From Thermodesulfovibrionales bacterium (GTDB taxonomy: Bacteria > Nitrospirota > Thermodesulfovibrionia > Thermodesulfovibrionales > JdFR-86): a stretch of 64,000 bases of DNA. Below the pieces are notes generated by a model, which was given only the letters and a program-made list of their open reading frames with translations, did not search any database and was not told the origin of the DNA. The position numbers and the translations under genes were made by a program. The DNA lies in assembly GCA_030682405.1 (NCBI GenBank), contig JAUXOF010000047.1:18877-82876 (forward strand), written 5' to 3'. Below are positions 19,129 through 44,354 of the stretch, in pieces. Positions within the stretch are counted from its first letter, which is position 1; each line of letters opens with the position of its first letter.

Positions 19129-21268
<2,140 letters not shown>

Positions 21269-21272
<4 letters not shown>

Positions 21273-22633: not shown

Positions 22634-22634
22634 A

Positions 22635-23375: not shown

Positions 23376-23403
23376 TAAACATGGGCATCCGGCAGAAGGG
23401 GTT

Positions 23404-25993: not shown

Positions 25994-26045
25994 CAAACCC
26001 CCCATCGTTTGATTAATCGCCGCGGATTCGGTTATCATATTGTTT

Positions 26046-27482
26046 ATGAATAGCGGCAAGACTAACAATAAAACCGGGAATCCCATGAACATATTATGGG
26101 TCTCCGGCGCGGCATTGGAAGGCCTCTGGGGGGCGGAAATATCGAAAAGGCTCGCAGGGAGCGGCTTTAATGTCGTTTTTCTGACCAACATGAAGCAGAC
26201 ATACGCTAAACTGAAGGAGGCGGGCTGCGACTGCCACCTTTTGTCGGACATTGCAATACCTCATAAAAAGGCGTTTACAGGCGCGGAACTCCAAGAGATT
26301 GAACGGAAATACGAGTACCCTGGGTTCAATAACCTGAGGAGTGCGGACGAGACCATAAGCGGCCTGCCTATGGACGAGGCGAACTCCATAGTCGCGTCTT
26401 ATTATCTGGCCGTTGAAGGGCTTTTTGAAAAGTACGGTTTCGGGAATTTGATAATGTTTCCTACCTCTGCCATTCAGGGCCGTGTGCCGTATTCCGTAGC
26501 AAAGGGCCGGGGGGCGCGGACCCTCATCCCGTACTGGGGCCCGGTGCACAACGATATGTTTGTGATTCTGGACGTATCCGAGGAATGGATATGGTCCGAG
26601 CTTTTTTCGGGTTCCCTCGCCGGGCCGGGCGAGGCTGAGATAAAAAGTGTCATAAGTGAAATCGAAAAGAAGCTCCTGTCGGCAAGGCAGCCAAGCTCAC
26701 AGAGCAGGATACAACAGGCAATCCGAATATCTCTAAATTGCCTTAGATATTTGCGCAGTTATAAAAGGGATTACGATTTCGCCGTGCGCGCACGGCTCGC
26801 TGAGATGAAAAAGGACATAAGGAGCTTCAGTGGGTTCTTTAGGAAATACCTTTTCAGGCATGACGAGTTCATCCCCGAGGGCAAATACGTATTTTTCCCG
26901 CTGCACTGCCATTTCGATGCCGCCCTACAGGCTGCCAATCCTATGTTCACCGACCAGTGCGCCCTTGTTAAAAACACAGCCAAGAGTCTTCCGGTAGGCT
27001 ACACCCTCTACGTGAAAGAGCATCCTTACGACGAGGGATATCTTAAAATCAGCCAGCTAAAAGAATTAAGGAGGATGGGCAACGTCAAAATCCTTCACCC
27101 TGCCGTAAGAAGCATACACATACTAAAAAATGCCTCGGCAGTGGTTACCATATCGAGTTCCGCCGGGTGGGAGGCCTTTCTTTTCAAAAAACCGGTTGTC
27201 GCCTTCGGCAGCTCCTTTTACGCGGAGTGCGACCTTATTTACAAGGTGAACGCTATGAAAGGACTCAAAGATATACTTTGGGAGGCGTTAAAAAAGGGCG
27301 AGTCCATTTATTCGGAGAGGGACGGCGAATATATGTCTTTCATTGGAAAGATAATCGCTGACTGCAGGCCCGGCAATGCCTGCGGCTATAAGTCTTCATT
27401 CGGCTGGGGATTCGACAGCAAAAAGGACGCGGAGCTTATAGCCGCGGGGCTTCTCTCAAAACTTCAGGCCGAAGCCGAATAG
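26046..27482 (+). CDS. Capsule-polysaccharide biosynthesis protein, KpsS/KpsC (Capsule_synth)-like putative CMP-sugar-acid transferase
   Basis: YVFFPLHCHFDAALQ..., LYVKEHPYDEG, VVTISSSAGWEAFLFKKPVVAFG. Start is ambiguous (26040 TTG, 26046 ATG or 26085 ATG). Confidence 0.55.
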   Translation: MNSGKTNNKTGNPMNILWVSGAALEGLWGAEISKRLAGSGFNVVFLTNMKQTYAKLKEAGCDCHLLSDIAIPHKKAFTGAELQEIERKYEYPGFNNLRSADETISGLPMDEANSIVASYYLAVEGLFEKYGFGNLIMFPTSAIQGRVPYSVAKGRGARTLIPYWGPVHNDMFVILDVSEEWIWSELFSGSLAGPGEAEIKSVISEIEKKLLSARQPSSQSRIQQAIRISLNCLRYLRSYKRDYDFAVRARLAEMKKDIRSFSGFFRKYLFRHDEFIPEGKYVFFPLHCHFDAALQAANPMFTDQCALVKNTAKSLPVGYTLYVKEHPYDEGYLKISQLKELRRMGNVKILHPAVRSIHILKNASAVVTISSSAGWEAFLFKKPVVAFGSSFYAECDLIYKVNAMKGLKDILWEALKKGESIYSERDGEYMSFIGKIIADCRPGNACGYKSSFGWGFDSKKDAELIAAGLLSKLQAEAE

Positions 27483-27489
27483 ACCGCTT

Positions 27490-29007
27490 ATGCCCTCAGG
27501 GAGACTCTTTAAGAACATCTCCTACAGCTATGCCGCAGTTTTCGTAAACCTTGTAGGCGGCATAGCCGTATTTCCAATTCTCCTTCGCGCAATCGGCAAG
27601 GAAAAATACGGGCTGTTCGTGCTTTTTCTCACATATTCCGCTACCGGCATATACTCTTTCTTGGATTTGGGCCTGAGGAACTCGGCTGTAAAGTACATAG
27701 CGGAAGACAACGCGCTCGGCAATACCGAGGGAGTGCTAAAGATAATAAACACCGTTTTTTCATTTCTTCTTCTGGCTACCGCCGCGTCGGTTGTCGTCAA
27801 CGTCTTCATATACTTTTTCTTTCTCGACGGCTGGCTCGCTTCCCTTTCGCACGAGGTGGTGAAGTATAAATACCTCTTTTATGTGTTCACCTGCTTCAAC
27901 GTCGTTTTCTTTATCCGTACGGCCCTCGATTCCTTTCTGGACGGCTTTCAGAGGATTGACGACTCAAGCAAGGCCATGATGGCCCAAGGGATACTCTTAA
28001 TGGCAGGCACTTGTGTAATCGCAGTCTACTTTACGGCAAGGGCCTTTGAACTCTACGTATACTTCGTATTGCTTCTTGAGGCGCTGACGGTCTTATATCT
28101 CGCTATCGCATGCAAAAGGGTCTTCCCCCAGTTCAGGTTCTCCGCCTCGATGGCCAGCCGCGAAACATTCAGGAGAATCCGGGGGCTTGGTATGAATTTC
28201 TTCGTAAACCGGCTTAACGGAGTTGCATTCTCACAAGCCCCGAAGATAATACTCGGGGCGTATAGCATAAGCACCCTCGCCGAATTCGACATAGTTTTTA
28301 AGTTTTCCAATCTCATGAAGCTTTCCATGGGCTCGATTAACAGGGCCATCTTCCCGCTGACCTCCGGCCACCACGCTGAGAGAAATTACGATAAGATAAA
28401 AACGACGTTTGTGCTTAGCACCCTTTTCAGCACCGCCTTTGCCTCGGCAATCGCTGTATTCATAATGGTCTTCCCGGACAAACTGCTTTACTTCTGGCTT
28501 AAAGACCCCTCCTACCAGAATCTCGCAGGGGTCCTCGCATATTCCGTGATATGGGCCTTCCCCGTGTCGTTCATCAACGCCGGGAGCGTGATGCTCGGCG
28601 CGGTGAACGAGATACGGAGGGCTGTGGCCTGGACCGCCGCCGGCACCGTCCTCTCGGTCGCCTCAGCGGTATGGCTCGTGGACGTCTGGGGGCTCTACGG
28701 GATGTTCACTGCGCTGTTTATAGCCTCCCTTTTTCCGGTCCCGATATATTTCATACTTATCAAGGAAAAACTGCAAATCCCTTACAAAACCATCGGTAGC
28801 AGTGTGCTTCTAAGGTCCTTTATAATAATAGCCTCCCTGACAGCGATATGCCTTACGGGCAGGTATGTTTTTGTTATGGACTCTCTTGGGAAAATGCTCG
28901 CAACTGGCATGATAGTCCTCCTCGCTTCCGGCCTCATGTCAATTCTCCTTCTTAGCAAGGGCGAGCGGGCCCTTGTGTCCGGTGTGGCATTCGGAAAAAA
29001 ATGGTAA
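27490..29007 (+). CDS. wzx: Polysaccharide flippase (Wzx / MOP superfamily)
   Basis: 505 aa, hydrophobic throughout with about 12-14 helices; typical position in a glycan locus. Confidence 0.75.
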   Translation: MPSGRLFKNISYSYAAVFVNLVGGIAVFPILLRAIGKEKYGLFVLFLTYSATGIYSFLDLGLRNSAVKYIAEDNALGNTEGVLKIINTVFSFLLLATAASVVVNVFIYFFFLDGWLASLSHEVVKYKYLFYVFTCFNVVFFIRTALDSFLDGFQRIDDSSKAMMAQGILLMAGTCVIAVYFTARAFELYVYFVLLLEALTVLYLAIACKRVFPQFRFSASMASRETFRRIRGLGMNFFVNRLNGVAFSQAPKIILGAYSISTLAEFDIVFKFSNLMKLSMGSINRAIFPLTSGHHAERNYDKIKTTFVLSTLFSTAFASAIAVFIMVFPDKLLYFWLKDPSYQNLAGVLAYSVIWAFPVSFINAGSVMLGAVNEIRRAVAWTAAGTVLSVASAVWLVDVWGLYGMFTALFIASLFPVPIYFILIKEKLQIPYKTIGSSVLLRSFIIIASLTAICLTGRYVFVMDSLGKMLATGMIVLLASGLMSILLLSKGERALVSGVAFGKKW

Positions 29008-29015
29008 AATAATTT

Positions 29016-30401
29016 GTGATATTCAGGGGCGGCACAGACGTAGTTTTAGCCGTTGACCACAAGTGGAGGGATCTTCCGGGGCTTGCGGCCATTTCGGTGT
29101 GGCTTCAGGAGGGCTTTGGGCTAAAGACCGAGCTTGTCCCCAACGGCCTTTGGCACGAAAGCCTGATAAGGCTCAGGCCGAAGGTGTTCGTCGTCCCGAT
29201 TTTATTCGGCGACTACAGCAGGAAGTTAGTTTCCATCGCCCGCGAGATGGGCACGAAGATAGCCGTCGTTATGACCGAGGGGAGGCCCAACAACCTCCAG
29301 GGCCTCGACTACATGGTGGGTAGGCACTCGGGCTCAGGCGACGCGGACCTCTGGCTCACGTGGAGCGACACGGTGAGGGACTACATGATAGAGAAAGAAG
29401 TGCTTCCCCCCGAAAAAATTATAACCGTGGGCGCCCACCGCTTCGACATATACAGGGAGCCGTTAAGCAGCCTCATAATGCCCCGCGACCGATTCCTAAA
29501 AAAATACGGCCTTGACTGCAACCGCCCCATCGTGAGTTGGGCCACCAATTTCACGCATGCGAAGTTCCACTTCTCAAACATTGAGTTCCTTAAGGAGAAC
29601 TGGCGGAGCCTTGGCCTTCTGAAATACCCGGCATACAAAGACCCTGCAGAGGTCTCCCGTAAAGACCACGAGGCGCGGGTCATGAGCGCGGAGGCCATTA
29701 GAAAGCTCCTTAAGGCAAGGCCTGAGATACAGCTTGCCGTAAAGCCCCATCCCTCCGAGGAGCACGACTACTACGAAGGGTTCGTGAGGGAGTGCAGGGC
29801 GGAGTTCGGCCCGCGCGTCGTGTTCATCGGCTCCGAATACATCTGGGACCTCCTCGCCGCCGCGGACGTCCACATAGACAGGCTCTGCACAACAGGGGTC
29901 GAGGCTTGGTTTCTGGACACCCCGTCCATAGACCTGCACCTCATGGACTATATGCCGTGGTCCGTTCATCTTGAGGGCTCGGCCTCCGAGGCATTGAGGG
30001 GGAACGACCTCGTGGACGATGCGGACTCTCTCATTGAGAAGGTTGACTACTACCTGAAGGGCGGAAGGCCTACGGAGGAGATGATGAGGGCGAGGCAGGA
30101 GTATATCCTGAGATGGCTTTACAGGGTTGACGGCAACCGGTGCCTTGAGGCCGCGCGCGCGCTTGCCGGGCTTCTTGACGGCGCGGGCGTGAGTCTCCCG
30201 GGCTTCAAGTGGGAGCATGTTGACGCGCTTTTCTCCGGGGTGAAGACCAGACTTTGGCTCAGATTAACCCACCGGGTGGATACGATACGGCAGGTGGACA
30301 AGGTGATATCTTCAGGGGACGCCAAGAAGTGGCTTCGGGCCGTGCGCGGGGCGCTTCTGCCCGCGATATCGGAGCTTAAGGCGAAGGGCTCTTTAAAATA
30401 A
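29016..30401 (+). CDS. Putative GT-B-fold polysaccharide biosynthesis transferase (KpsS/KpsC- or TagF-like), function unknown
   Basis: LAVKPHPSEEHDYY...VVFIGSEYIWDLLAAADVHIDRLCTTGVEAWF parallels the donor-binding half of the two other Capsule_synth-like ORFs. GTG start. Confidence 0.4.
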   Translation: MIFRGGTDVVLAVDHKWRDLPGLAAISVWLQEGFGLKTELVPNGLWHESLIRLRPKVFVVPILFGDYSRKLVSIAREMGTKIAVVMTEGRPNNLQGLDYMVGRHSGSGDADLWLTWSDTVRDYMIEKEVLPPEKIITVGAHRFDIYREPLSSLIMPRDRFLKKYGLDCNRPIVSWATNFTHAKFHFSNIEFLKENWRSLGLLKYPAYKDPAEVSRKDHEARVMSAEAIRKLLKARPEIQLAVKPHPSEEHDYYEGFVRECRAEFGPRVVFIGSEYIWDLLAAADVHIDRLCTTGVEAWFLDTPSIDLHLMDYMPWSVHLEGSASEALRGNDLVDDADSLIEKVDYYLKGGRPTEEMMRARQEYILRWLYRVDGNRCLEAARALAGLLDGAGVSLPGFKWEHVDALFSGVKTRLWLRLTHRVDTIRQVDKVISSGDAKKWLRAVRGALLPAISELKAKGSLK

Positions 30402-30433
30402 CCGCCGGCCCGCGAGATGTGGGAGGTAAAAAC

Positions 30434-31375
30434 ATGAGCGTGCAATGCCCGGTGTGCTCCTCAGGGAACTCGATACTCAAGGAAACATACGGAAAATACG
30501 GAATCCGCCTCTGCGGGGACTGCGACCTCGTATTCTCAGACCCGATGAGGACGGACATGGGGTTTTACGAGACCTCCGAGGACTACGCCGACAGGGACGG
30601 CATCATGTTCGATTCGATGAAGTGGCACGAGCGCTGGGACGTAATGGAGTTTCTGAAGACCCCGCCGGTTAAGGCCGGAAGCCTCCTCGACATAGGCTGC
30701 GGAACCGGGTTTTTCGTCAAAAGGGCTGTGGACATGGGGCTTAAAGGATACGGGATAGACTTCAACGAGCGCTCGATAGAGAGCGGGCGCAGGCGCTTCG
30801 GGCTGGATACCCTCTATGCGACCGACATCAAGGGCTTCATCTCGGCCAACCCCGGCCTTGGGTTTGATGCTGTGACGCTTTTTCACATACTTGAGCACGT
30901 GGAGGACCCAAATCGGCTCATGGACGAGATACAGGGCGTGCTCAAGGACAACGGGGTTCTGGTCATAGCCGTGCCCCTTAGGGACAGGTGGCCGGATTTC
31001 GTCAGGAAGGAGATAGACAGCCCCCCTCACCACCTCACAAGGTGGTCCATAAGGGCGCTTGAAAAATTCCTCGGAAGAAACGGCTTCCGGGTGACAAGGC
31101 GCAGGGTGCAGGGCTTCCCGATGGATGTCGTGACAGGTCTCATCTATAAGTTCGTCCTCAAGGTCGCCCCCTCGCTGACCCTTAGGGGACAGAAGGTCTC
31201 TGAAAGAAGCGGGCAGGGAGAGCTTGGCGAGCGGGAGATTGAGGCCATCATGAAAAAGCGCAGGCTCAAGATAATGGCGGCGGGCGTTTTGGGGTTCCCG
31301 TTCTGGCTCGCCCTTAAGCTCATTGGGGCAAAAGGCCCGCTTGTCTATATAGAGGCAAGGCGTGGGGGCATTTAA
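30434..31375 (+). CDS. Class I SAM-dependent methyltransferase with N-terminal Zn-ribbon and C-terminal hydrophobic tail
   Basis: CPVCSS...CGDCDLVF, motif I LLDIGCGTGFF. ATG at 30434 follows GGGAGG. Confidence 0.8.
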   Translation: MSVQCPVCSSGNSILKETYGKYGIRLCGDCDLVFSDPMRTDMGFYETSEDYADRDGIMFDSMKWHERWDVMEFLKTPPVKAGSLLDIGCGTGFFVKRAVDMGLKGYGIDFNERSIESGRRRFGLDTLYATDIKGFISANPGLGFDAVTLFHILEHVEDPNRLMDEIQGVLKDNGVLVIAVPLRDRWPDFVRKEIDSPPHHLTRWSIRALEKFLGRNGFRVTRRRVQGFPMDVVTGLIYKFVLKVAPSLTLRGQKVSERSGQGELGEREIEAIMKKRRLKIMAAGVLGFPFWLALKLIGAKGPLVYIEARRGGI

Positions 31376-31377
31376 AA

Positions 31378-32766
31378 TCAGCTCTGCCTGAAGCCGCGGA
31401 AGCTTGCGTCTTTCCCCAGATAAAGCTTCTCTGCCTGCTTAACTACGGAAACCGATTTTTTCTCGAAGTAGTTTTTGATAAGAACTGCGTTTGCCTCAAA
31501 AAGCGCTTCGTGGAACCGGTCGTCGCTAAGCTCGGTAAAGTTTATGGAAAGCAGGTCTGAGTTTGTGTGCTTGTTCTCGTAGAAGTCCTCGCAGTCCTTA
31601 AGCAGCCCCCTGTCCATTGCCTCATAATAAAGGGGTGAGCCCGGATAAGGCGTGACAGGCCTTATGTGGCGCAACTGTGCGCCGTCGTCGTATTTAAGAA
31701 GAAACTCCACGCCCTTCCTCAGGGTCTCTGTGTTGTCGCCTATGTTGCCGAAGATGATGTTGAACCCGGGGCTTATGCCCGCCGAAAGCGTGGCCTCTAT
31801 GCCCTTTATTATCTGCCCCGTCGTAAGGGCCTTTTTCATGTTCTTAAGGACGATATCGTCCATCGCCTCTATGCCGTAGTTTATGAAAACGCACCCGGCC
31901 TCCTTCATCACCTTGAGCATTCCGGGTTTTGCGTAATTGAGCCTGCCGTTACAGTCCCATTTAATGTTCAACTTCGCCTTTATAAAATCCTCGCAGAGGC
32001 TTTCCGTTCTTTGCACGGAAGACATGAGAAGCTCGTCCGAGAACGCTATGAACGTAATCCCGTAATCGCGCTTCAGCAGCTTTATCTCCTCGATTATCGC
32101 CTCGTTGCTCCTCGGCCTGAACCCCTTGTCCATGCGGTAGCAGAAGGTGCACCTGAAGGTGCAGCCCCTCCCCGAAAGCATGGGCATGACGAAATCGGAA
32201 TTCCTTGTGTGGGGCATACGAAGAAGCCTGTATAAGTCTATAGGGAAGAGATCGAACGCAGGGAAGGGTATGGTGTCTATGTCCTTTATCAGGGGCCTTC
32301 TTTCGTTCACTGCGGTCTTTCCGCCGTCGTTGTACGCTATCCCTTTTACAGAGGAAAACGGCCTTTTCCCGGATACTGCATCGAGGAGCTCAAGGACGGT
32401 TATCTCCCCTTCGCCTATCACTATAGCGTCTGCCCCGGTCTTCCTCATGAAGAACTCGGGATCGGGAGAAGGGCCGTGTCCCCCTATTATATAAAACGGC
32501 CTCTGTTTGGATCCGTTTATCGCGCCTGATATGCCGAGCAGCTTTCTGTACTGGTAGTAGCCTGCGATAACGCTTACGCCCACTATGTCGAAGCGGTTCT
32601 TGTCAAGGTATTCCTTCAGATGGTCGTCGGAGTAGTGGTGCTTGTCTTGATTATAGACTGTCACGTCAATGCCGTTTTTCCTTAAAACGGCGGCTATGTA
32701 GGCAAGCCCCTGAGGGAACCAGTGGATGTAGGAGTCGTTGTCGTAAACTATAAGGAGGACCCTCAT
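31378..32766 (-). CDS. B12-binding-domain radical SAM enzyme (class B), second copy
   Basis: PQGLAYIAAVLRKNGIDVTVYN, SGRGCTFRCTFCYR. The ATG at 32766 forms an ATGA overlap with the upstream ORF. Confidence 0.85.
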   Translation of the reverse strand: MRVLLIVYDNDSYIHWFPQGLAYIAAVLRKNGIDVTVYNQDKHHYSDDHLKEYLDKNRFDIVGVSVIAGYYQYRKLLGISGAINGSKQRPFYIIGGHGPSPDPEFFMRKTGADAIVIGEGEITVLELLDAVSGKRPFSSVKGIAYNDGGKTAVNERRPLIKDIDTIPFPAFDLFPIDLYRLLRMPHTRNSDFVMPMLSGRGCTFRCTFCYRMDKGFRPRSNEAIIEEIKLLKRDYGITFIAFSDELLMSSVQRTESLCEDFIKAKLNIKWDCNGRLNYAKPGMLKVMKEAGCVFINYGIEAMDDIVLKNMKKALTTGQIIKGIEATLSAGISPGFNIIFGNIGDNTETLRKGVEFLLKYDDGAQLRHIRPVTPYPGSPLYYEAMDRGLLKDCEDFYENKHTNSDLLSINFTELSDDRFHEALFEANAVLIKNYFEKKSVSVVKQAEKLYLGKDASFRGFRQS

Positions 32767-33047
32767 CTTAAGCCCTTTTCTTCCTCGATGAGCCTCTCGA
32801 ACCTGTAGCGGCACCTCACGTGGCCTTCAAGCGAAGGCAGATGCGCGCCGCCCGCGATGTCGGTTGAATTGCAGTTGGGGCAGGCCTCCTCGTGGCACAG
32901 GCAGACCTCCCCGCATTTGCGGCATACCCTGTAGAGATTGCCTTTTGTCGCGGGGGAATTTATGAGAATCTTAATCCGTATCCTTCTTTCTCTTTCTATC
33001 CATGCCGGATATTCAGCATCAAGGTTGGGGTCAGGGTCAAGCTTCAT
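32763..33047 (-). CDS. Small Zn-ribbon protein of unknown function
   Basis: 94 aa with CRKCGEVCLCHEEACPNC. Translationally coupled on both sides (1-nt and 4-nt overlaps). Confidence 0.55.
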   Translation of the reverse strand: MKLDPDPNLDAEYPAWIERERRIRIKILINSPATKGNLYRVCRKCGEVCLCHEEACPNCNSTDIAGGAHLPSLEGHVRCRYRFERLIEEEKGLR

Positions 33048-34270
33048 CACGAAACCCTGTGTTTGAGCCTCCACTGTCCGTTTACCTTTTCCCACAGGTG
33101 GGGGGGCCTGAACTTGTCGCTGTTGACAAGCTCAAGGAAATGCTCCTCGGTCATGTCTACATAGTTCAGTATCTCGGTGAAGTACTTTTTCGGGAACTCC
33201 CCGTCAAAGCGGTGCACGAGGGCAACGCCCTCTTCCCTCGTCAGATGCTTGTTTCTAATCTCCTGAGAGGCGTCGTAGGTGGCCCTTCCGAGGCCGAATT
33301 TTATATAGGTCGTGTAGTAGTGGAAGCCGTCTATCCTGTCGTCAATGCTGTTGTATTTTGAATAAGTGCCCTCCGACCTTTCCGGGTTGGCCTCAAACCC
33401 GGTGTGCTCCACAGCGTAGTAATAAGCCTCCTGAGGGGTCCACCTGAGGTAATACCCAAGGTAGCGTATGTCCACCTCAGCCTTTAGAAGCTCGGCAGGG
33501 TCCGCGGGGAAATAGGCCTCAAGGTCGTTCCATGTGAGGTTATGTTTCTCAATTAGGTCTTTAGCCGCAACACCGCCGAGATATATCTTCTGGAGGTCGT
33601 TTTTGCCAAGGCTGTAGTACTTCGTCTCCCTCTTGGGGACAAGCCCCTCGGCAATGGGGTTTCCGTACTCGGCCTCGCTTTCGCCGTAGAAGACCAACTT
33701 TATGCCGAACTTCAGGGCAAGCGTTGGAGCAAGGTTTTTCTGGCCGATTATGAAGGGCTGAAAAGGATGAAGGAGGTTTTCCGTAGCAAGCTTCGTAAGC
33801 AGCCTGTGCACCCTTCCGTTGGGCCAGAAAGAGACGTTGTCGAACCCCCCCACTCCTATCCAGTCCTGAAAGTTCTTCCACCCGATGTCCGTATAAATGT
33901 GGGGAGGCCATGTGCAGGTCAAGGGGTGCATCCCATATTTATATTTAAGCACATGGGCGGCAAAGGCAGAGTCCTTGCCGCCGCTTCCGGGCACAAGTAC
34001 GTCATAGTGGCCGTCGTCCCTTCTGTACCTGTCGAGGAGCTTTATGAGTTCTTTTTCCCGAGCCTGCCAGTCGGTCTTCTCCTTAAGCTCTGCAAGCCTG
34101 CATGCGTCGCAGACGCCGTCTTCGCCTATGGCAAGGGTGGGTTTTTTCTGCTCGATTGTGTGCAGGTGCTCGGGCACGGAGCCCGGCCTCTGGTTGGACA
34201 TGACGCACCTTCTGCAGAATTTGACTTCCGCGGGAAGGCCGTACATTGTGGCAGGTTTCTCAGGGCTCAT
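33047..34270 (-). CDS. N-acetyl-sugar amidotransferase (PP-loop ATPase; WbuX/PseA-like acetamidino-forming enzyme)
   Basis: N-terminal FCRRCV...GVCDAC, PP-loop VLVPGSGGKDSAF; 407 aa. Confidence 0.8.
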   Translation of the reverse strand: MSPEKPATMYGLPAEVKFCRRCVMSNQRPGSVPEHLHTIEQKKPTLAIGEDGVCDACRLAELKEKTDWQAREKELIKLLDRYRRDDGHYDVLVPGSGGKDSAFAAHVLKYKYGMHPLTCTWPPHIYTDIGWKNFQDWIGVGGFDNVSFWPNGRVHRLLTKLATENLLHPFQPFIIGQKNLAPTLALKFGIKLVFYGESEAEYGNPIAEGLVPKRETKYYSLGKNDLQKIYLGGVAAKDLIEKHNLTWNDLEAYFPADPAELLKAEVDIRYLGYYLRWTPQEAYYYAVEHTGFEANPERSEGTYSKYNSIDDRIDGFHYYTTYIKFGLGRATYDASQEIRNKHLTREEGVALVHRFDGEFPKKYFTEILNYVDMTEEHFLELVNSDKFRPPHLWEKVNGQWRLKHRVS

Positions 34271-34914
34271 AATTTTAAAAAGTTCCTATAGATATCAAGC
34301 CCAAGGGCGCCGCTTTTTTCCGGGTGGAACTGACATCCGCATATATTATTTTCGTTAATCGCAGAGCAAAAAGTCAACCCGCCGTATGCGGTCTCGGCAA
34401 GAATATGGGAGGGGTCATCGGGCGCCACGACATAGGAATGGACGAAGTACATGGAGTCTCCTTCCTTAAGCCCCTCAAGTATCGTAGAGTCCCAGTTCTT
34501 GCGGTGTCCGGGCATGTAAATCCCGTTCCATCCGATATGGGGTATCTTGTAATGCGGGCCTTTGTCCGCAGGCGCGGGAAACCGCACCACCTTGCCTGAG
34601 ATAAGGTCAAGCCCCTTGTGCGTTCCCATCTCCTCGCCTACGGTCATCAGGAGCTGCATCCCAAGGCAGATGCCTAAGACCGGCCTGCCGGAGGAGGCAA
34701 CGGACTTTATGGGTTCTACGAGCCCCCTGCCTTTCAGATTGGATATGCCTTGTCCGAATGCGCCAACGCCCGGCACTATCAGGTAATCCGAACTTGAAAT
34801 CACTCCCGGCTCCGAGGAGATTACCGCATCGGCCCCTGCGTATCTTACGGCCCTCTCCACGCTGAATAGGTTTCCGAGGCCGTAGTCCACGATATTGACG
34901 GTCTTTTTGCTCAT
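34267..34914 (-). CDS. HisH-like glutamine amidotransferase subunit (WbuY-like)
   Basis: GVGAFG, PVLGICLGMQLL (nucleophile elbow), GCQFHPEKSG. Confidence 0.88.
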   Translation of the reverse strand: MSKKTVNIVDYGLGNLFSVERAVRYAGADAVISSEPGVISSSDYLIVPGVGAFGQGISNLKGRGLVEPIKSVASSGRPVLGICLGMQLLMTVGEEMGTHKGLDLISGKVVRFPAPADKGPHYKIPHIGWNGIYMPGHRKNWDSTILEGLKEGDSMYFVHSYVVAPDDPSHILAETAYGGLTFCSAINENNICGCQFHPEKSGALGLDIYRNFLKL

Positions 34915-35780
34915 CCCTTATTTTCTCTCAGCATCCTTATGCCTATCCCGAACCCTGAGAGATACTTTTTTAGATAAGGTATGGATACGGGCTTTATGAG
35001 CTTTCGCGTATGCCCCCCGCTTCTTAGGAAAGATATGTTGCCCTCCTCTTTATACTCCCCCCTCGTTACCATATAGTCAAGCATCCCGTAGTGAAATATA
35101 GAGGCCGCGCATACGGCATCCGCATGCCCTTCCTGAATTACCTCCCTTACGTGGTCCGCATCCCCTGCCCCGCCGCACGCTATCACCGGAATGTCCACCA
35201 TATCCGAGACAGTCCTCGTAAGCTCGACATCGTAGCCTTTCCCTGTGCCCTCGCGGTCTATGGATGTGATGAGGATTTCCCCTGCGCCGAGGTCGGCAGC
35301 TCTTTTGACCCATTCAAAAACGTCCACGCCGGTTTTTTCCCTTCCGTTGTCCGTGAGGCACTCGTATTTTCCCGGCCCCCTGTGCTTGGCCTCTATGGAT
35401 ACCACTATGCACTGCGAGCCGAAAGCCCTTGCCCCCTCGGTTACGAGATTGGGGTTGTTTATCGCTGCGGTGTTTATCGCCACCTTGTCCGCACCCGCCC
35501 TCAGGAGACTCCGTATGTCCTCAACAGACCTGATGCCCCCGCCGACGGTAAGAGGGATATAGAGGTTTTCAGCCGCCCGGCTGACTATATCCGCAAGGTT
35601 ATTCCTCCCGTAAAGGCTGGCCACGGTGTCCATGTACAAAAGCTCGTCCGCGCCATCTTCATAGTACTTGGGCGCGAACAGCTCCGGCCTTCCTAAGACG
35701 CGCAGGCCCTCAAGGTGAATACCCTTGACCACGTTCGGGCCTTTGATGTCGAGCCTCGCGATTATCCTAACCGACTTCAT
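34911..35780 (-). CDS. HisF-like cyclase/synthase subunit (WbuZ-like)
   Basis: RIIARLDIKG..VVKG, GADKVAINTAA, GAGEILITSIDREGTGKGYD. Confidence 0.88.
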   Translation of the reverse strand: MKSVRIIARLDIKGPNVVKGIHLEGLRVLGRPELFAPKYYEDGADELLYMDTVASLYGRNNLADIVSRAAENLYIPLTVGGGIRSVEDIRSLLRAGADKVAINTAAINNPNLVTEGARAFGSQCIVVSIEAKHRGPGKYECLTDNGREKTGVDVFEWVKRAADLGAGEILITSIDREGTGKGYDVELTRTVSDMVDIPVIACGGAGDADHVREVIQEGHADAVCAASIFHYGMLDYMVTRGEYKEEGNISFLRSGGHTRKLIKPVSIPYLKKYLSGFGIGIRMLRENKG

Positions 35781-35805
35781 CTGATTATTTTACCCTAAGG
35801 GGCTG

Positions 35806-36600
35806 CTAAACAGCAGTCCAGCCCCCGTCAACCATGAAGGCCGTGCCCGTTATGTAGGAGGATGCGTCCGAGGCAAGGAAAAGGGCGGCTGAGGCCACTT
35901 CGTCGGGCCTCCCCATCCTCTTTAAAGGCGTTCTTTTGGAATAGTTTTTCACGAAGCCCGGGTTCTGTTTGTCGAATATGCCTCCCGGACAGAGGATATT
36001 GAAGCGTATCCCGTCGCCTCCGTAATAAGATGCCATGTATCTGGTAAGACCGGTTATCCCCGCCTTTATGGCGGAGTAGGCAGCGGGTGAGGTCATCTTT
36101 GTGCCCTCGTACACGGTAAAGTCGTTTCCCACGATGCCGTAAATAGACCCGATATTTATTATCGAGCCCTTGACCCTGTTTTCCTTCATAAGCTCGGCCA
36201 TGGCCCTTGAGACGGCGAATGCGGAGTTTAACTGCATATCCACATTCTTCCGCCATGACTGAAGAGGGACATCCCCGCATTTTGCCCCCCAGTCGGCAGT
36301 CCTTGGGTATGAAGAATTGACAACAATGTCTATGGGGGAAAAATCCTTCCAGAGCCTTTTAAGCCCTGCCTCAATCCCCTTTAATTTTGAAACGTCAAAG
36401 GCTGTAAACCCGACGTCAAGCCCCCGGCCCTTTAGCTCGGAAGCCGTTTCCTTCCCGCGTGAGCTTTTGACATCAAGGATAAGCGTCTTTGCGCCTGCCT
36501 GAGCCAGCGCAGAGGTTATCTCCCTGCCTATAAGCCCGGCCCCTCCGAAGACGACTGATGTTTTGCCTTTAAGAGAAAATTTTTTCATGTAGTCAATCAT
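35806..36600 (-). CDS. ptmA: Short-chain dehydrogenase/reductase, PtmA-like
   Basis: KTSVVFGGAGLIG, YSAIKAG, SDASSYITGTAFMVDGGWT; ATGA overlap with legF. Confidence 0.7.
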   Translation of the reverse strand: MIDYMKKFSLKGKTSVVFGGAGLIGREITSALAQAGAKTLILDVKSSRGKETASELKGRGLDVGFTAFDVSKLKGIEAGLKRLWKDFSPIDIVVNSSYPRTADWGAKCGDVPLQSWRKNVDMQLNSAFAVSRAMAELMKENRVKGSIINIGSIYGIVGNDFTVYEGTKMTSPAAYSAIKAGITGLTRYMASYYGGDGIRFNILCPGGIFDKQNPGFVKNYSKRTPLKRMGRPDEVASAALFLASDASSYITGTAFMVDGGWTAV

Positions 36601-37307
36601 AGTTTCACCTTCCCTTTTTCCACGAGAAACTCTATGAACTCGAAATCTATCTCCCTGTCTATGTCGTGGGAGGATATGTCGTCCATCACATAGATTGCCG
36701 TACGGTCGGTCATAATGGATGTCTTGCTCTCATCGAGGATGAAGTCCCTGCCGTAAAAATATATGGATGCGTTTAAGGAATAGACCCTTGGCGCATCCTG
36801 CCGCCTTTCCACGCCACCGGGAAGCATCTTAGAGAGGGTCACAAAGCCGTCGGGCTTCTCCTCGACCATGTTGAAATAGGGGTTCCTTTCAGCGTTGACC
36901 ACGCTGAAAAGGACATCGGGCTTCACGGCGAGGAATTTTTCGAGGCAGCCGTCGAGGTCTTCCATAGTGCGCACAGGGGCGGTGGCGTCGAGGTCAACGA
37001 GGATGTCGTATCTTTCGCCGAATATCCTTTCGCACTCCAAAAAGGCGTGCCTGTCCACCGGGAGCTTCGGAGCGGTATCCGTGGCAAGCTCCGCAGGCCT
37101 CATGAAGGGCACGAGAGCGCCCGCCTCTTTTGCCGCCGCTGCAATTTCATTTGAGTCCGTGGAGACGACCACCTTCGATGCCCTGCCCCATGCAAGGGCC
37201 TGCCCTATCGTACAGGCTATCAGGGGCCTGCCGGCAAGGGGCCTGATGTTTTTGTTCCTGACCCCCTTTGAACCCCCGCGCGCGCCTATGACCACAAGGA
37301 TATTCAT
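36597..37307 (-). CDS. legF: CMP-legionaminic acid synthetase (acylneuraminate cytidylyltransferase family)
   Basis: ILVVIGARGGSKGVRNKNIRPLAGRPLI; sits within the leg/ptm block. Confidence 0.8.
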   Translation of the reverse strand: MNILVVIGARGGSKGVRNKNIRPLAGRPLIACTIGQALAWGRASKVVVSTDSNEIAAAAKEAGALVPFMRPAELATDTAPKLPVDRHAFLECERIFGERYDILVDLDATAPVRTMEDLDGCLEKFLAVKPDVLFSVVNAERNPYFNMVEEKPDGFVTLSKMLPGGVERRQDAPRVYSLNASIYFYGRDFILDESKTSIMTDRTAIYVMDDISSHDIDREIDFEFIEFLVEKGKVKL

Positions 37308-38245
37308 CTTACGGCGCTTTCCCTGAATCCTATTATCTTTCTGAAAAGGTGCGAGGCCTCCTCAAGGTTATTCATCAGAGACGGGTTCTGAATGTTTCCA
37401 AAGAAATACCTCATCTGCTCGACAAACATACCATCCCTCTCCGCAGGCAGGCGCAGGGTTTCCCTGCCCCCTCCGTCCGAGCGCTCAAGCGTGCAGGCTA
37501 TGAGGTCGGCCCTGAAAAACCCCGCCTCCGTATCCACCTCTATATGCCTTTGGCTTTGCCTGCTGAAAAAATTCAGGTGCAGGTTCGTAAAATGCCCTCC
37601 CTCGTGCCTTATAAGGGCGTCCGTCCAATCCTCGGCGTCAACCGTCACATCAGAGCGCCTGCCTGCATGCCCGGTGATATTATGAATCCTTCCCAGCAAA
37701 TATTCAATGTAATCGAACTCGTGCGAAAGCTCAAGCATGACGCCTCCGCCCTGCTCCTTGTAGGCGGAGTAGCCTTCAAGATGGTTCTGCCCCGGCCTCC
37801 ACTCAGGCAGGTATGAGGTGCACCGCACATTGGCGTGCCGGATGTAAACGCCTTCAAGCCTCTTTTTGAGTTCCTTAATTACAGGATGAAACCTCAGGCA
37901 GTAGGCCGCATAGGCCGTAAGCCCCTTCTGTTTTAGGAGTCCGATGAGGTCGTCGAGTCCGCCTGTGTCCGAACCGACAGGCTTCTCTATAAATAAGTGC
38001 ATGCCGTGTCCCGCGCACCTTGTGGCAACCTCTATGTGCTTAAAAGTCGGGTTTGTTATAAAGGCGCAGTCAGGCTTTATCTCATCGACCTCTTCCCAAT
38101 GGTGGATTTCCCTGATTCCGAACTCATTGGGAGCGCATGCCTTTTCAGACCTGAAGGCGAAAAGCCCATGCTCAGGGAATTCGCTTAGAAGCAGCCGGGC
38201 GTATCTTTTCCCTATGGAGCCGAGTCCAAAAAGGATTATCTTCAT
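37304..38245 (-). CDS. ptmF: Gfo/Idh/MocA-family oxidoreductase, PtmF-like
   Basis: MKIILFGLGSIGKRY Rossmann N-terminus, HLFIEKPVG. Confidence 0.7.
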   Translation of the reverse strand: MKIILFGLGSIGKRYARLLLSEFPEHGLFAFRSEKACAPNEFGIREIHHWEEVDEIKPDCAFITNPTFKHIEVATRCAGHGMHLFIEKPVGSDTGGLDDLIGLLKQKGLTAYAAYCLRFHPVIKELKKRLEGVYIRHANVRCTSYLPEWRPGQNHLEGYSAYKEQGGGVMLELSHEFDYIEYLLGRIHNITGHAGRRSDVTVDAEDWTDALIRHEGGHFTNLHLNFFSRQSQRHIEVDTEAGFFRADLIACTLERSDGGGRETLRLPAERDGMFVEQMRYFFGNIQNPSLMNNLEEASHLFRKIIGFRESAVR

Positions 38246-38300
38246 GGCAGAACAGTCCCCCTGTTATAGGCAGGGGAAACCGTGTCTTTCCCTGCCGCTC

Positions 38301-39359
38301 CTACTCGGTTATGAGCCTGTCTATGTTTTTCTTGTACTCTTCCCACTGCCCGATATCCACATATGACTTTTCGCTAACCGGGTAAACGCCTATCTTCTTT
38401 TTCTTTTTCAAAAGGGCGCTTATCAGGTCCGTCATGTGGAAGGCCTTGCCCTTGCTGATGTGCTCAAGCGCCTCCTTCTCGAGCACATAAAGGCCGGTGT
38501 TTATGAGCATGTCGTACTCCGGCTTTTCGTTAATGGCCTTTAGCCCCCCGCCCTCCTTATACTCGATTATGCCGTAGGGGATTTTATAGTGCTGGATGGA
38601 GCCTACAATCGTAAGGCTGTGCCTGCCCTTTTTATGGAATTTTACGAGGTCCGCATAGTCCGCTTCCACTATTATGTCGCAGTTTGAGACTATGAACGTC
38701 CCGCCCACGCCGCCGGGCAAAAGCCGGAGGCTTCCGGCAGTGCCGAGGAAGTCTTTTTCCCGGATGTAGCGTATCTTGTATCCCGTCTCCACATTGTCGA
38801 AATAAGATTTAATCATCTCTGCCTTATAGTTTACGGTGAGATAGAAATCCGAGACCCCGTACTCATTGAATTTATCCATTATAAGCTCAACGATGGGCTT
38901 CTCTCCTATCGGTATCAGGGGCTTGGGCAGAATCTTGGTAAAGGGGTCAAGCCTTGTGCCCCGCCCGCCCGCCATGATTACAACAGGCAGGTCTATCTTT
39001 TCCTTCTCCTTCATCCCACCGCCGAATACCTGCGGCCATGTGATAAACCCGGTAAGCCCGCCCCCGCCGTCCGTAACAGGGATGATGTCTATCTGGTGCT
39101 TAACGAGCAGTTTCTTTGCAGCCCCGGGGTCGTAACCCTCCTTAAGATAAACCGGGTTTTTGTTGAAGCAGCCTTCTATGGTATCGTTGAGGTTCCCGTT
39201 TTTTAGGATGTGTCTTCTTATGTCGCCATCCGTGAGCACTCCTATGAGGCGCATCTCCTTGTCCGCTACAAAGAGTATCCCCTCCCCGCCTTTGTCTATC
39301 TGCTTTAATGCGGCCTTTACCGTCTTATCCGGGGTTATGATTAGCTTGTTTAGTTCCAT
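38301..39359 (-). CDS. ptmE: CBS-pair + sugar-1-phosphate nucleotidylyltransferase (PtmE-like GlcN-1-P guanylyltransferase)
   Basis: N-terminal CBS pair (GVLTDGDIRR, IIPVTD), then VVIMAGGRGTRLDPFTKILPKPLIPI. Confidence 0.8.
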   Translation of the reverse strand: MELNKLIITPDKTVKAALKQIDKGGEGILFVADKEMRLIGVLTDGDIRRHILKNGNLNDTIEGCFNKNPVYLKEGYDPGAAKKLLVKHQIDIIPVTDGGGGLTGFITWPQVFGGGMKEKEKIDLPVVIMAGGRGTRLDPFTKILPKPLIPIGEKPIVELIMDKFNEYGVSDFYLTVNYKAEMIKSYFDNVETGYKIRYIREKDFLGTAGSLRLLPGGVGGTFIVSNCDIIVEADYADLVKFHKKGRHSLTIVGSIQHYKIPYGIIEYKEGGGLKAINEKPEYDMLINTGLYVLEKEALEHISKGKAFHMTDLISALLKKKKKIGVYPVSEKSYVDIGQWEEYKKNIDRLITE

Positions 39360-39360
39360 G

Positions 39361-40530
39361 TCAATTCTTTATATTGTAAAACCTTTTCATGATTAATTTC
39401 TCACCCAGCTTCACCCTCCTAAGGATGCCGGCTATTTTTTTTGCCGTGGTCCCGCCTCCATAGGGGTTTTTCATCCGGGCTGCAAGCTCCCTCATACCGC
39501 CGGAAAACGCCTTTTTAATCGCCAAGGCAATAGCCTCGGCCTCGGGTTTGCAGTCCATCACCGACTCCGCCCTGACCCTCCCCCTTTGCCTTTCCCCGAT
39601 ATTCACGGTCGGCACCCCGAGCGAAGGGGCCTCTATTATCCCGCTTGAGGAGTTGCCGACCACGGCATCCGCGTGCTTTACCGCGCTCAAATAAAGGAGC
39701 CGTCCGAGGCTCGTATAAGCAGCAGCCTTATCAGAATGCCTCTCTGCATACCGGTCCATCATTCCGATAATGACCCTGCCGTATGTATCTGCATTTGGTT
39801 TTGTGAATATGACGCCTGTGTCCTTAAGTCCGTCTACTGCCCTGAGGAGTTCCCCGAACTGTTTTCCGGCCGTGTTCCTCTCAAGCGTGACCGGGTGGTA
39901 GGTGACGAGGATATTGCGCTTTTTGAACTCAAATCCGAGTCTTTTTTCAAGCTCTTTTTTCGTAAGCAGCCTTGTGTTTTTTATATTGTCAAGCCCGAGC
40001 GCTCCCACGTTAAAGACCCTTTTGGGGTTCTCTCCGAGCTGTATGACCCTCCTTCTGTACTCTTCCGTGGAGGTGAAATGTATATGGCTCATCTTTGTTA
40101 TTGAATGCCTCATGGCCTCGTCGATTGCGCCCTCTGTGGACTCTCCGCCGTGCAGGTGGGCTATGGGTATCTTGGCAATTGTGGCTGCGGTTGCCGCAGA
40201 AAAGGTCTCAAACCTGTCACCGAGGAGGACTATAATGTCCGGCCTAAGCCTCCCTATGCTGTCGGCAAGCCCTATTATCCCCAAGCCCGTGGATTTGGCA
40301 ATCCCGGCCTCAGAGTCGCTCGAAAGGAGCATCTCCACTTTATCGTCTATTCGGAACCCGTCTTTTTCTATCTCCTTGTACGTAAGCCCGAACTCAGGGG
40401 AAAGATGCATCCCCGTGGCTATTATCTGGATTTGGAAGTCCTTGACGCCTTTTATCTCTTTAAGCAGTGGATAAAAAAGGCCGTAATCCGCCCTCGTTCC
40501 GGTGACTATGCATATTTTCTTTCTTCTCAA
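39361..40530 (-). CDS. legG: NDP-sugar-hydrolysing 2-epimerase (NeuC/LegG type)
   Basis: KICIVTGTRADYG, LLGDRFE, IAHLHGGE, typical of hydrolysing UDP/GDP-GlcNAc 2-epimerases. Confidence 0.85.
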   Translation of the reverse strand: MRRKKICIVTGTRADYGLFYPLLKEIKGVKDFQIQIIATGMHLSPEFGLTYKEIEKDGFRIDDKVEMLLSSDSEAGIAKSTGLGIIGLADSIGRLRPDIIVLLGDRFETFSAATAATIAKIPIAHLHGGESTEGAIDEAMRHSITKMSHIHFTSTEEYRRRVIQLGENPKRVFNVGALGLDNIKNTRLLTKKELEKRLGFEFKKRNILVTYHPVTLERNTAGKQFGELLRAVDGLKDTGVIFTKPNADTYGRVIIGMMDRYAERHSDKAAAYTSLGRLLYLSAVKHADAVVGNSSSGIIEAPSLGVPTVNIGERQRGRVRAESVMDCKPEAEAIALAIKKAFSGGMRELAARMKNPYGGGTTAKKIAGILRRVKLGEKLIMKRFYNIKN

Positions 40531-41531
40531 ATCTCTATCGCCTCGTCTTTCCTGAAATCGCGCTTAGCCTTTTTCCCAATCACCCTATCCCATCTCATAG
40601 GGCTTATTCCCGTGCCCGGCCTTTTTGCAGTAAGGTTTTCTTCTGTGAATACATCGCCTTTTTTTATGTCCCTTGCCGCAACTATGCTTTTCCTCGCAAT
40701 GGGCCTGTTCTTTATCTCAGAAGGGCTGGGCCTCTTTATGCCGTCTCCGAGGGCCTTATCTATGTTCCTTACGGCCTTTACCATCGCCTTAAGCTCGTTG
40801 GGCTCAAGGCTTGCCTTGTGGTCCGGGCCTTCCATGTCCCTGTCCAATGTAAAATGCTTCTCAATAACCGTTGCGCCCAAAGCGGCGGCGGCTATCGGAA
40901 TTTCTATTCCCAGAGTGTGGTCAGAGTACCCGACTTTTACCATAAGCCTTTCCTTTATCGTAAGCATCGCCCTGAGATTGACATCCTCTGCCGGCGTTGG
41001 GTATTCCGTGTTTGCGTGAAGAACGGTTATATCCTTCTTCTTGGTTCCCGCCTTTATAAGAATTTCCAAGGCGTCTTTTATCTCTGCCATATTGCACATG
41101 CCGGTTGAGATAATGACATTCTTTTTAAGCGCGCCTATCTTCCTCAGATACGGCAGGTTTGTCACCTCCCCTGAGGGTATCTTGAATATCTTAAGCCCGA
41201 ATGAATTCAGTAAATCAACGCCCTTTTCATCAAACGGGGTTGAGAGGAACATTATCCCCTTTTCCCTGCACCGGCTTATCAGCTGCCTGTGCGCCGCAGG
41301 GCTTAGCTCGAGCCTTTTCAGCATCTCATGCTGCGTCTCATTCCTTCCGGTCGTCTTTTTCTGATACTCTGCCTTCGGCGCTGACCTGCTTACAAGATGC
41401 TCCGCCTTAAACGTCTGGAACTTCACGGCATCCGCGCCTGCCTCTGCCGCAACGTCTATCATCTTTTCTGCGATTCTTATGTTTCCGTTGTGGTTTACGC
41501 CTGCCTCTGCGATGACGAATGTCCTCCTCAC
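40527..41531 (-). CDS. legI: Legionaminic acid synthase (NeuB family, with SAF domain)
   Basis: VIAEAGVNHNGN..AVKFQTF, KIPSGEVTN, STGMCN, C-terminal ARDIKKGDVFTEENLTAKRPG. Confidence 0.85.
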   Translation of the reverse strand: MRRTFVIAEAGVNHNGNIRIAEKMIDVAAEAGADAVKFQTFKAEHLVSRSAPKAEYQKKTTGRNETQHEMLKRLELSPAAHRQLISRCREKGIMFLSTPFDEKGVDLLNSFGLKIFKIPSGEVTNLPYLRKIGALKKNVIISTGMCNMAEIKDALEILIKAGTKKKDITVLHANTEYPTPAEDVNLRAMLTIKERLMVKVGYSDHTLGIEIPIAAAALGATVIEKHFTLDRDMEGPDHKASLEPNELKAMVKAVRNIDKALGDGIKRPSPSEIKNRPIARKSIVAARDIKKGDVFTEENLTAKRPGTGISPMRWDRVIGKKAKRDFRKDEAIEI

Positions 41532-42151: not shown

Positions 42152-42156
42152 TGCCT

Positions 42157-44291: not shown

Positions 44292-44354
44292 TTACTAAAT
44301 ATCCTTTTTATGCCTGTTTTTCAAAGCTATTGTAACAAAAAAAGCGGTTAATTT

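Follow-up and report, generated by a model that had tools for sequence, protein, structure and literature searches.

What does a short gene string at the tail of a legionaminic acid (Leg) operon encode: a single machine that forms an amidine and then modifies it, or separate modules that lie side by side? The question is raised by five minus-strand genes of a Thermodesulfovibrionales bacterium (contig JAUXOF010000047.1), found in the 64,000-nt stretch of DNA that was analyzed here as a whole (contig positions 18,877 to 82,876; hereafter the window). The string (31378-35780 of the window, 4.4 kb) forms the 3′ end of a complete GDP-GlcNAc-type Leg operon on the same strand (35806-44291, as delimited by Pfam and NCBIfam scans). 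It encodes paralogs of HisF and HisH, a WbuX-type amidotransferase, a 94-aa Cys-rich protein and a class B radical S-adenosylmethionine (SAM) enzyme, as follows:

34911-35780, minus strand: HisF paralog, WbuZ/AglZ-type cyclase-like subunit, 289 aa (PF00977, 229 bits)
34267-34914, minus strand: HisH paralog, class I glutaminase subunit, 215 aa (TIGR01855, 200.5 bits, cut-off 105.4; PF00117, 69 bits)
33047-34270, minus strand: WbuX/PseA/PtmG-type PP-loop N-acetyl sugar amidotransferase, 407 aa (TIGR03573, 342.1 bits, cut-off 203.2)
32763-33047, minus strand: 94-aa Cys-rich, zinc-ribbon-like mini-protein of an orphan family (profile searches, context)
31378-32766, minus strand: class B radical SAM enzyme with a B12-binding domain, 462 aa (PF02310 and PF04055)

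In the preliminary description of this locus, which was made from the letters alone, the five genes were chained by overlaps of 4, 4, 1 and 4 nt, the first three were taken for an acetamidino-forming trio, and the last two were proposed to act as a coupled pair on the amidine, for example by N-methylating it. The chain was confirmed from the open reading frame (ORF) listing and the letters: the genes overlap at 34911-34914 (4 nt), at 34267-34270 (4 nt), at 33047 (1 nt, TGATG) and at 32763-32766 (4 nt, ATGA), the TGATG and ATGA junctions having been read directly. The ORF lister had placed the gene of the 94-aa protein at 32763-33095 and that of the radical SAM enzyme at 31378-32814, in both cases from upstream GTG codons. 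The homolog-backed ATG starts are at 33047 (94 aa) and 32766 (462 aa), because the closest homolog of the 94-aa protein, P0001, shares its N-terminus, and because the radical SAM orthologs are nearly all 462 aa long with full query coverage. Short overlaps of this kind are a normal operon feature and are unremarkable by themselves. As described below, the acetamidino module on the Leg pathway and the reality of the 94-aa family were borne out, and the proposed pair of 94-aa protein and radical SAM enzyme modifying the amidine was not. We consider it rather probable that the string consists of two separable accessory modules appended to the Leg operon, i.e., the trio with the 94-aa protein and the radical SAM enzyme, and not of one five-gene machine.

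Separability of the radical SAM gene and the amidotransferase trio

A scan of one genome per species yielded 80 loci with an ortholog of the radical SAM enzyme (63-77% identity), and all proteins of the window were then compared with these loci by tblastn. The genes found near the radical SAM gene were:

CMP-transferase: 60/80 loci
NeuB: 51/80 loci
LegC: 47/80 loci
LegB: 46/80 loci
NeuC: 45/80 loci
PtmE: 45/80 loci
WbuX: 21/80 loci

HisF, HisH and WbuX were each present in 21-22 of the 80 loci, with HisF beside the other two in 20-21 related loci, and when the neighbors were clustered de novo, the high-frequency genes were Leg genes only. Among the loci flanked by 8 kb or more on each side (n = 46), 15 carried WbuX and 31 had no amidotransferase within 8-10 kb, so that the radical SAM gene, which had been tied to the amidotransferase in the preliminary description, mostly occurs independently of it. 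The enzymes themselves were not divided along this line either: the mean identity was 67.4% among trio-positive loci, 66.3% among trio-negative loci and 66.6% between the two groups, and the sequences were interleaved, with no trio sub-clade. The commonest identified neighbor was the CMP-transferase, located 15 times upstream and 10 times downstream of the radical SAM gene. Because the radical SAM gene often adjoins this CMP-nonulosonic acid (NulO) synthetase, the enzyme probably acts on Leg or CMP-Leg, and would do so independently of amidination.

The converse arrangement was also observed. Three loci (L102, L107 and L111) contain complete Leg clusters with the trio and the 94-aa protein and without the radical SAM gene, i.e., the two modules are separable in both directions.

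Other genes were seen around the radical SAM loci. Maf and flagellin genes lie beside the cluster in several Bacillota and in one Desulfuromonas metagenome-assembled genome (MAG). In addition, a conserved protein of ~630 aa without a Pfam domain (633 aa; found at 2341-4239 of L001 and in 10 other loci) is encoded directly after the radical SAM gene in nine loci; our guess is that it could be a NulO transferase.

The 94-aa protein and its association with WbuX

The 94-aa protein matched no Pfam or NCBIfam family above cut-off. Ten homologs were found among 5.8 billion proteins and 37 representatives among 1.84 billion proteins by profile search, and the alignment carries a coding signature: the differences by codon position were 0.43, 0.32 and 0.62, and more than one codon is used at 12 of the 13 invariant amino-acid columns. 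The ORF, whose conservation and coding nature had been assumed at the outset, thus belongs to a real, rare protein family. The significant members are all small stand-alone proteins (52-156 aa), and no fused copy was found among them or in the 80 radical SAM genome loci. The invariant residues are W16, R19, E20, R21, R24, C42, C45, E47, C49, L50, C51, H52, E53, C56, P57, N58, C59 and N60, so that the CxxC pairs C42/C45 and C56/C59, together with C49, C51 and H52, place six invariant Cys and one His within 18 residues. The AlphaFold2 model (pLDDT 80) has a long helix, then hairpins that form a ribbon, and a further helix at the C-terminus. Foldseek of this model against the PDB gave no match at E <= 0.001, the weak top matches being L40e and DUF35 ribbon proteins.

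We then analyzed the gene order around the family. Contig look-ups and a metagenome scan provided 25 non-duplicate external contexts, or 26 with the window. A WbuX ORF lies directly upstream of the 94-aa protein in 19 of the 25 external contexts (20/26 with the window), and a radical SAM gene lies directly downstream in 4 of the 25 (5/26 with the window). The second copy of the 94-aa protein in L094 is a further case, which follows a partial WbuX. Locus L021, which seemed an exception to this pairing at first, has the order CMP-transferase, WbuX, 94-aa protein, radical SAM, HisF, HisH, WbuX. The gene that follows the 94-aa protein differs among loci and can be the radical SAM gene, PtmE, NeuC or NeuB. 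Furthermore, when the 80 radical SAM loci were searched by tblastn, with confirmation by profile search, the 94-aa protein was found in only two of them. These counts do not support the coupled pair of zinc-ribbon protein and radical SAM enzyme that had been proposed; as judged from gene order, the 94-aa protein is a partner of WbuX and not of the radical SAM enzyme, and its position before the radical SAM gene in the window is that of two modules side by side.

Since WbuX is upstream in most contexts, and since Leg clusters exist with the trio and the 94-aa protein and without the radical SAM gene, the 94-aa protein can be regarded as an optional accessory of WbuX. It is also a rare one: only two of the 21 WbuX loci found near radical SAM orthologs contained it. 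Residues or tails of WbuX that would separate copies associated with the 94-aa protein from copies free of it were sought and none was found, hence there is no sign that the small protein replaces a lost part of WbuX. It would probably act as a metal-binding (Zn or Fe-S) adaptor or stabilizer of the amidotransferase complex. The family is new and minor, and its protein may be a hitherto unrecognized subunit of the acetamidino-forming amidotransferase.

Two loci carry duplications of this pair. In L021 (8513-14154) there are two WbuX paralogs, 50% and 62% identical to the protein of the window, and in L094 (1672-7234) there is one pair of WbuX and 94-aa protein, plus a second 94-aa protein preceded only by the partial WbuX ORF. 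Such duplicated genes may serve amidination at both N5 and N7, or may be decaying duplicates.

The radical SAM enzyme: family, candidate chemistry and Pse-cluster relative

The radical SAM enzyme of the Leg operon has an N-terminal B12-binding domain (PF02310, 63.9 bits, cut-off 32.1; residues 16-127) and a radical SAM core (PF04055, 76 bits, cut-off 29.5). Its CxxxCxxC motif reads CTFRCTFC, and C202, C206 and C209 were invariant in 32 sequences. It scored below the cut-off of every named class B model of NCBIfam (24 listed, including BchE, HpnJ, PhpK, BzaD, HpnR, MgmA/MJ_0865, AprD4, ApyD and TIGR04295), the best being BchE with 126.6 bits against a cut-off of 481.35. Its own orthologs form a compact set: the best 120 in 5.8 billion proteins are nearly always 462 aa long and 72-79% identical to it. 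The 80 loci span Nitrospirota, Desulfobacterota, Omnitrophota, Planctomycetota, Bacillota (Desulfoscipio geothermicus DSM 3669 and Wukongibacter baidiensis among them), Campylobacterota, Elusimicrobia, Parcubacteria and one Methanolobus MAG. The gene is the most conserved of these clusters, with a median identity of 69.7%, compared with 56.7% for LegB, 54.2% for NeuB and 37.1% for the CMP-transferase. The N-terminal Rossmann domain (32 of 135 positions invariant) is conserved to about the same degree as the remainder of the protein, which suggests a functional cofactor site. As judged from identity and neighborhood, the enzyme thus represents a sharply defined orthologous group embedded in Leg clusters. 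When plasmids were searched by tblastn, only paralogs with 27-30% identity in unrelated Azospirillum loci were retrieved, and phages gave no match.

Orthologs 69-74% identical to the enzyme of the window are found in L014, the archaeal Methanolobus MAG, and in L016 and L049, which are Parcubacteria of the candidate phyla radiation (CPR). These archaeal and CPR copies imply that the gene or cluster has spread horizontally, or else that the bins are contaminated.

Full-text searches of one literature library returned no paper tying radical SAM or B12-binding enzymes to legionaminic, pseudaminic or nonulosonic acid biosynthesis or to flagellin glycosylation; as a component of Leg clusters, the enzyme spans phyla and is undescribed. 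NulOs decorate flagella, S-layers, capsules and lipopolysaccharide (LPS), and shape phage and immune recognition. Their known diversity stems from N- and O-substituents. No gene of Leg clusters is better conserved than this class B radical SAM gene, which occurs in many phyla including CPR; this points to a widespread undescribed radical step in the pathway.

Which reaction might this be? Most characterized class B radical SAM enzymes are methylases; they include GenK and GenD1, C-methylases of aminoglycoside sugars, and Fom3, whose substrate is CMP-activated. Because of these precedents, because the B12 domain is intact and conserved, and because the fold resembles those of TsrM, MgmA, CysS and TokK, we infer, as a favored but tentative guess, that the enzyme would carry out a cobalamin-dependent C-methylation of Leg or CMP-Leg. 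The methylated site would be an unactivated carbon, i.e., C9, C3 or the N-acyl methyl. The likeness to GenK, GenD1 and Fom3 is one of architecture and setting, not of sequence: they share the B12-binding Rossmann domain with the CxxxCxxC core, and a place in a sugar-biosynthesis cluster, often beside a cytidylyltransferase. The differences are that the substrate here would be a NulO, and that the enzyme of the window matches no NCBIfam equivalog.

Part of the evidence weighs against methyl transfer. The AlphaFold2 model (pLDDT 88.9) finds its best folds in AprD4, TsrM, MgmA, OxsB, CysS and TokK, and AprD4 of apramycin biosynthesis (PDB 6fd2), which acts on an amino sugar, is both the top fold match (TM 0.73-0.76, rmsd 3.5-3.8 A, near-equal length) and, in the sequence comparison, the highest-scoring relative of solved structure (E 2.5e-17). 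AprD4 is a cobalamin-independent, non-methylating sugar 1,2-diol dehydratase, and since it nevertheless has the class B fold, the fold alone is no proof of cobalamin use. In addition, the highest NCBIfam scores are those of BchE and HpnJ, models that represent non-methylating class B enzymes rather than simple methylases. The enzyme could then be a cobalamin-independent, AprD4-like dehydratase, deoxygenase or epimerase that remodels a sugar of the Leg pathway without methylating it, with a new stereoisomer or a further-deoxygenated NulO as a possible outcome; the short-chain dehydrogenase/reductase (SDR) and the GFO oxidoreductase, whose genes lie a short way upstream in the window, would be candidates for the reduction of a keto intermediate. 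However, SDR and GFO partners accompany the radical SAM gene in just 14-15 of the 80 loci, so that there is no conserved reductase partner, and Leg has no vicinal diol. The AprD4 model NF033070 gives only 76 bits against a cut-off of 500, the identity to AprD4 is 19-20%, and the fold matches to the true cobalamin methylases TsrM and MgmA have E-values that are statistically equal to that of AprD4. Moreover, phmmer aligned AprD4 to the radical SAM core only (155-414) and left the N-terminal domain unaligned, whereas MgmA and OxsB reach the Rossmann domain too, and the B12-binding domain is a strong match that is conserved like the core. We therefore regard the AprD4-like activity as unlikely, though it is the main rival of C-methylation.

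The two readings that join the 94-aa protein to the radical SAM enzyme call for the same weighing, and a few points do speak against separate modules. The neighborhoods were inspected within +/-10 kb of each ortholog, so that an amidotransferase farther off in the genome would escape the counts given above. The 94-aa protein stands immediately upstream of this class B radical SAM family in 5 of the 26 contexts (the window, L081, L021, L097/L098 and L099/L100) and, in one instance (L085/L086), of another class B family. Its six invariant Cys and the His could bind an Fe-S cluster instead of Zn, and it may have a dual or redox role. On this basis the protein could serve the radical SAM enzyme as a chaperone, or as an electron donor of the rubredoxin or ferredoxin kind that reduces the [4Fe-4S] cluster or cob(II)alamin; the C-P pair of the 94-aa protein recalls Fe-S motifs, and one homolog is labeled 'rubrerythrin' in one source. 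This seems quite improbable, given its near absence from the 80 radical SAM loci, its presence in complete Leg clusters that have no radical SAM gene, the predominance of WbuX upstream of it and the ribbon-type, if weak, structural matches. It is less probable still that the zinc-ribbon protein and the radical SAM enzyme jointly modify the product of the amidotransferase, e.g., by N-methylating the acetimidoyl group to give Leg5AmNMe7Ac. The tight translational coupling of WbuX, the 94-aa protein and the radical SAM enzyme in the window would fit this, as would the recurrence of their order in L081, L097/L098 and L099/L100 and the position of WbuX directly before the radical SAM gene in seven further loci. 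But class B radical SAM methylases act on C or P and not on N, N-methylation needs no radical chemistry, and N- or O-methylation would more simply be ascribed to the class I methyltransferase next door (30419-31375). In the literature, the N-methyl-acetimidoyl Leg route is attributed to PtmH (Cj1325/6), an N-methyltransferase/methyltransferase giving Leg5AmNMe7Ac (PMC13317340; 10.64898/2026.04.20.719630). PtmH, which decorates the amidino derivative, resembles the enzyme of the window as an accessory enzyme inside a Leg cluster, from which it is set apart by its description: PtmH is presented solely as an N-methyltransferase/methyltransferase, and the window enzyme is a radical SAM protein that mostly has no amidotransferase nearby. 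Since the latter holds, with no trio-specific sub-clade, and since the 94-aa protein pairs with WbuX, also where the radical SAM gene is missing, N-methylation of the amidine by the radical SAM enzyme is unlikely, and the separation of the two modules corrects what would be an easy mis-annotation as 'amidine methylase'.

A second class B radical SAM gene of the window is part of a complete pseudaminic acid (Pse) cluster (19141-25993, plus strand: PseB, PseC, class B radical SAM, PseF, a PseG-PseH fusion and PseI):

21269-22633, plus strand: Pse-cluster class B radical SAM enzyme, between PseC and PseF

The two radical SAM proteins of the window, which had been described as clearly different, are full-length paralogs with 32% identity. 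They have the same architecture and a similar conservation, and the Pse-cluster enzyme belongs to a distinct group tied to PseB/PseC-type, not LegB/LegC-type, clusters. Its orthologs are 65-79% identical across phyla, including Altiarchaeales, and in NulO clusters of Cloacimonetes, Altiarchaeales and Phycisphaerae they are encoded at, or one gene from, the cytidylyltransferase. The sequences thus appear to define two parallel orthologous groups that serve Pse-type and Leg-type pathways.

CMP-activated higher-carbon (~C10) ulosonic acids were detected by mass spectrometry (MS) in Magnetospirillum gryphiswaldense, and in lower amounts in Methanococcus, and were left unexplained; neither report names a biosynthetic gene (PMC8157484; 10.64898/2026.04.20.719630). 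It is a long shot, but both radical SAM families could be cobalamin-dependent C-methyltransferases that act on the skeleton of a CMP-activated 5,7-diamino NulO, possibly at C9, and a skeletal C-methylase of this kind would explain the C10 ulosonic acids. Although this lead is speculative, the radical SAM gene provides a concrete gene for unexplained MS species (+14 Da forms, C10 markers). If it were true, one would expect sialic-acid-like sugars with such a C-methyl group to be widespread among anaerobic and uncultured phyla, on their surfaces as well as their flagella.

Further radical SAM genes were noted at related loci. In L085 (982-2424) and L086 (2588-3487), the gene that follows the 94-aa protein encodes a different class B radical SAM enzyme of 480 aa, with 33% identity to the Leg-type and 38% to the Pse-type enzyme. 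At other surface-glycan loci (L002, L008, L071, L112 and others) there are often several additional radical SAM genes of the class B and SPASM types, whose products have 24-34% identity to the enzymes of the window. The multiple radical SAM genes at the glycan loci of these anaerobes suggest an extensive radical chemistry on glycans.

The acetamidino module, the Leg operon and other surface-glycan genes

The remaining part of the string is known biology. The match of WbuX to TIGR03573 spans profile positions 1-343 of 344, and its translation contains the PP-loop SGGKDS (LVPGSGGKDSAF), which fits SGGxDS, as well as an N-terminal CxxC...CxxC. The HisH and HisF paralogs adjoin it, with an overlap of 4 nt each. 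The HisH-like protein retains the triad in its translation, with the Cys in GICLGMQ and His-Pro-Glu in FHPEKS, and the HisF-like protein scored 287.8 bits with TIGR00735 (hisF; cut-off 294.55) and 281 bits with TIGR03572 (WbuZ; cut-off 299.7). Because of these family scores, the motifs and the operon context, the trio is assigned, by sequence, as a bona fide acetamidino-forming module attached to the Leg pathway, as had been anticipated. By analogy with what is proposed for PseA, PtmG and WbuXYZ, HisH would hydrolyze glutamine and release NH3, the HisF-like barrel would channel the NH3 to WbuX, and WbuX, using ATP through its PP-loop, would adenylate or otherwise activate the acetamido oxygen of Leg so that an acetimidoyl (Am) group is formed. 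The substrate of WbuX would probably be CMP-Leg5Ac7Ac.

The literature presents PtmG as the acetamidino-synthase for CMP-Leg5Am7Ac and suggests that it acts on nucleotide sugars (PMC13317340; 10.64898/2026.04.20.719630). The closest systems are WbuX/WbuY/WbuZ (FucNAm of Escherichia coli O145), PseA with Cj1314c/Cj1315c and PtmG (Pse5Am and Leg5Am7Ac of Campylobacter) and AglX/Y/Z of Methanococcus maripaludis. The trio resembles them in that a TIGR03573-level amidotransferase lies beside HisH and HisF paralogs inside a NulO operon, and differs from them in that WbuX is followed by the 94-aa Cys-rich protein, which has no Pfam or NCBIfam model. We know of no description of such a protein for the WbuXYZ, PseA/PtmG or AglXYZ systems.

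The operon upstream of the string contains LegB, LegC, an acetyltransferase, a NeuC-type epimerase, a NeuB-type synthase and a CMP-synthetase on one strand, i.e., the full set expected of a Leg cluster:

43299-44291, minus strand: LegB (TIGR04180, 467 bits, marginally under the cut-off of 475)
42157-43302, minus strand: LegC (TIGR04181, 505 bits, cut-off 420)
41528-42244, minus strand: NeuD-type acetyltransferase (TIGR03570, 219 bits, cut-off 161)
40527-41531, minus strand: NeuB (TIGR03569, 526 bits, cut-off 400)
39361-40530, minus strand: NeuC, hydrolyzing epimerase type (TIGR03568, 497 bits, cut-off 236)
38301-39359, minus strand: CBS-nucleotidyltransferase, PtmE-like (Pfam/NCBIfam scans)
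37304-38245, minus strand: GFO oxidoreductase (Pfam/NCBIfam scans)
36597-37307, minus strand: CMP-NulO synthetase, a CTP_transf_3 protein (Pfam/NCBIfam scans)
35806-36600, minus strand: SDR, PtmA-like (PtmA model, 141 bits)

Directly upstream of LegB, on the same strand, an AMP-forming acyl-CoA/ACP-ligase-like multidomain protein of 878 aa is encoded (44355-46991), which might be the source of an unusual N-acyl group. Neither a cobalamin riboswitch nor any other RNA was matched when the whole window was scanned with Rfam, and in a promoter/terminator scan of 30000-45000 the counts were no different from those of shuffled controls.

On the plus strand, convergent with the Leg operon, the region 26040-31375 encodes a KpsS-like capsule protein, a Wzx-type flippase, a surface-carbohydrate glycosyltransferase of the BFO_1060 family (Tannerella-type) and the class I methyltransferase mentioned above, which has an N-terminal CxxC...CxxC. 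The stop of this methyltransferase (31375) and that of the radical SAM gene (31378) are 2 nt apart, so that there is no room for terminators between them. Finally, a third NulO-type gene set (16507-18933, minus strand) consists of a NeuB-like synthase without SAF domain (290 aa), a cytidylyltransferase and an SDR, and the window would thus encode three NulO pathways.

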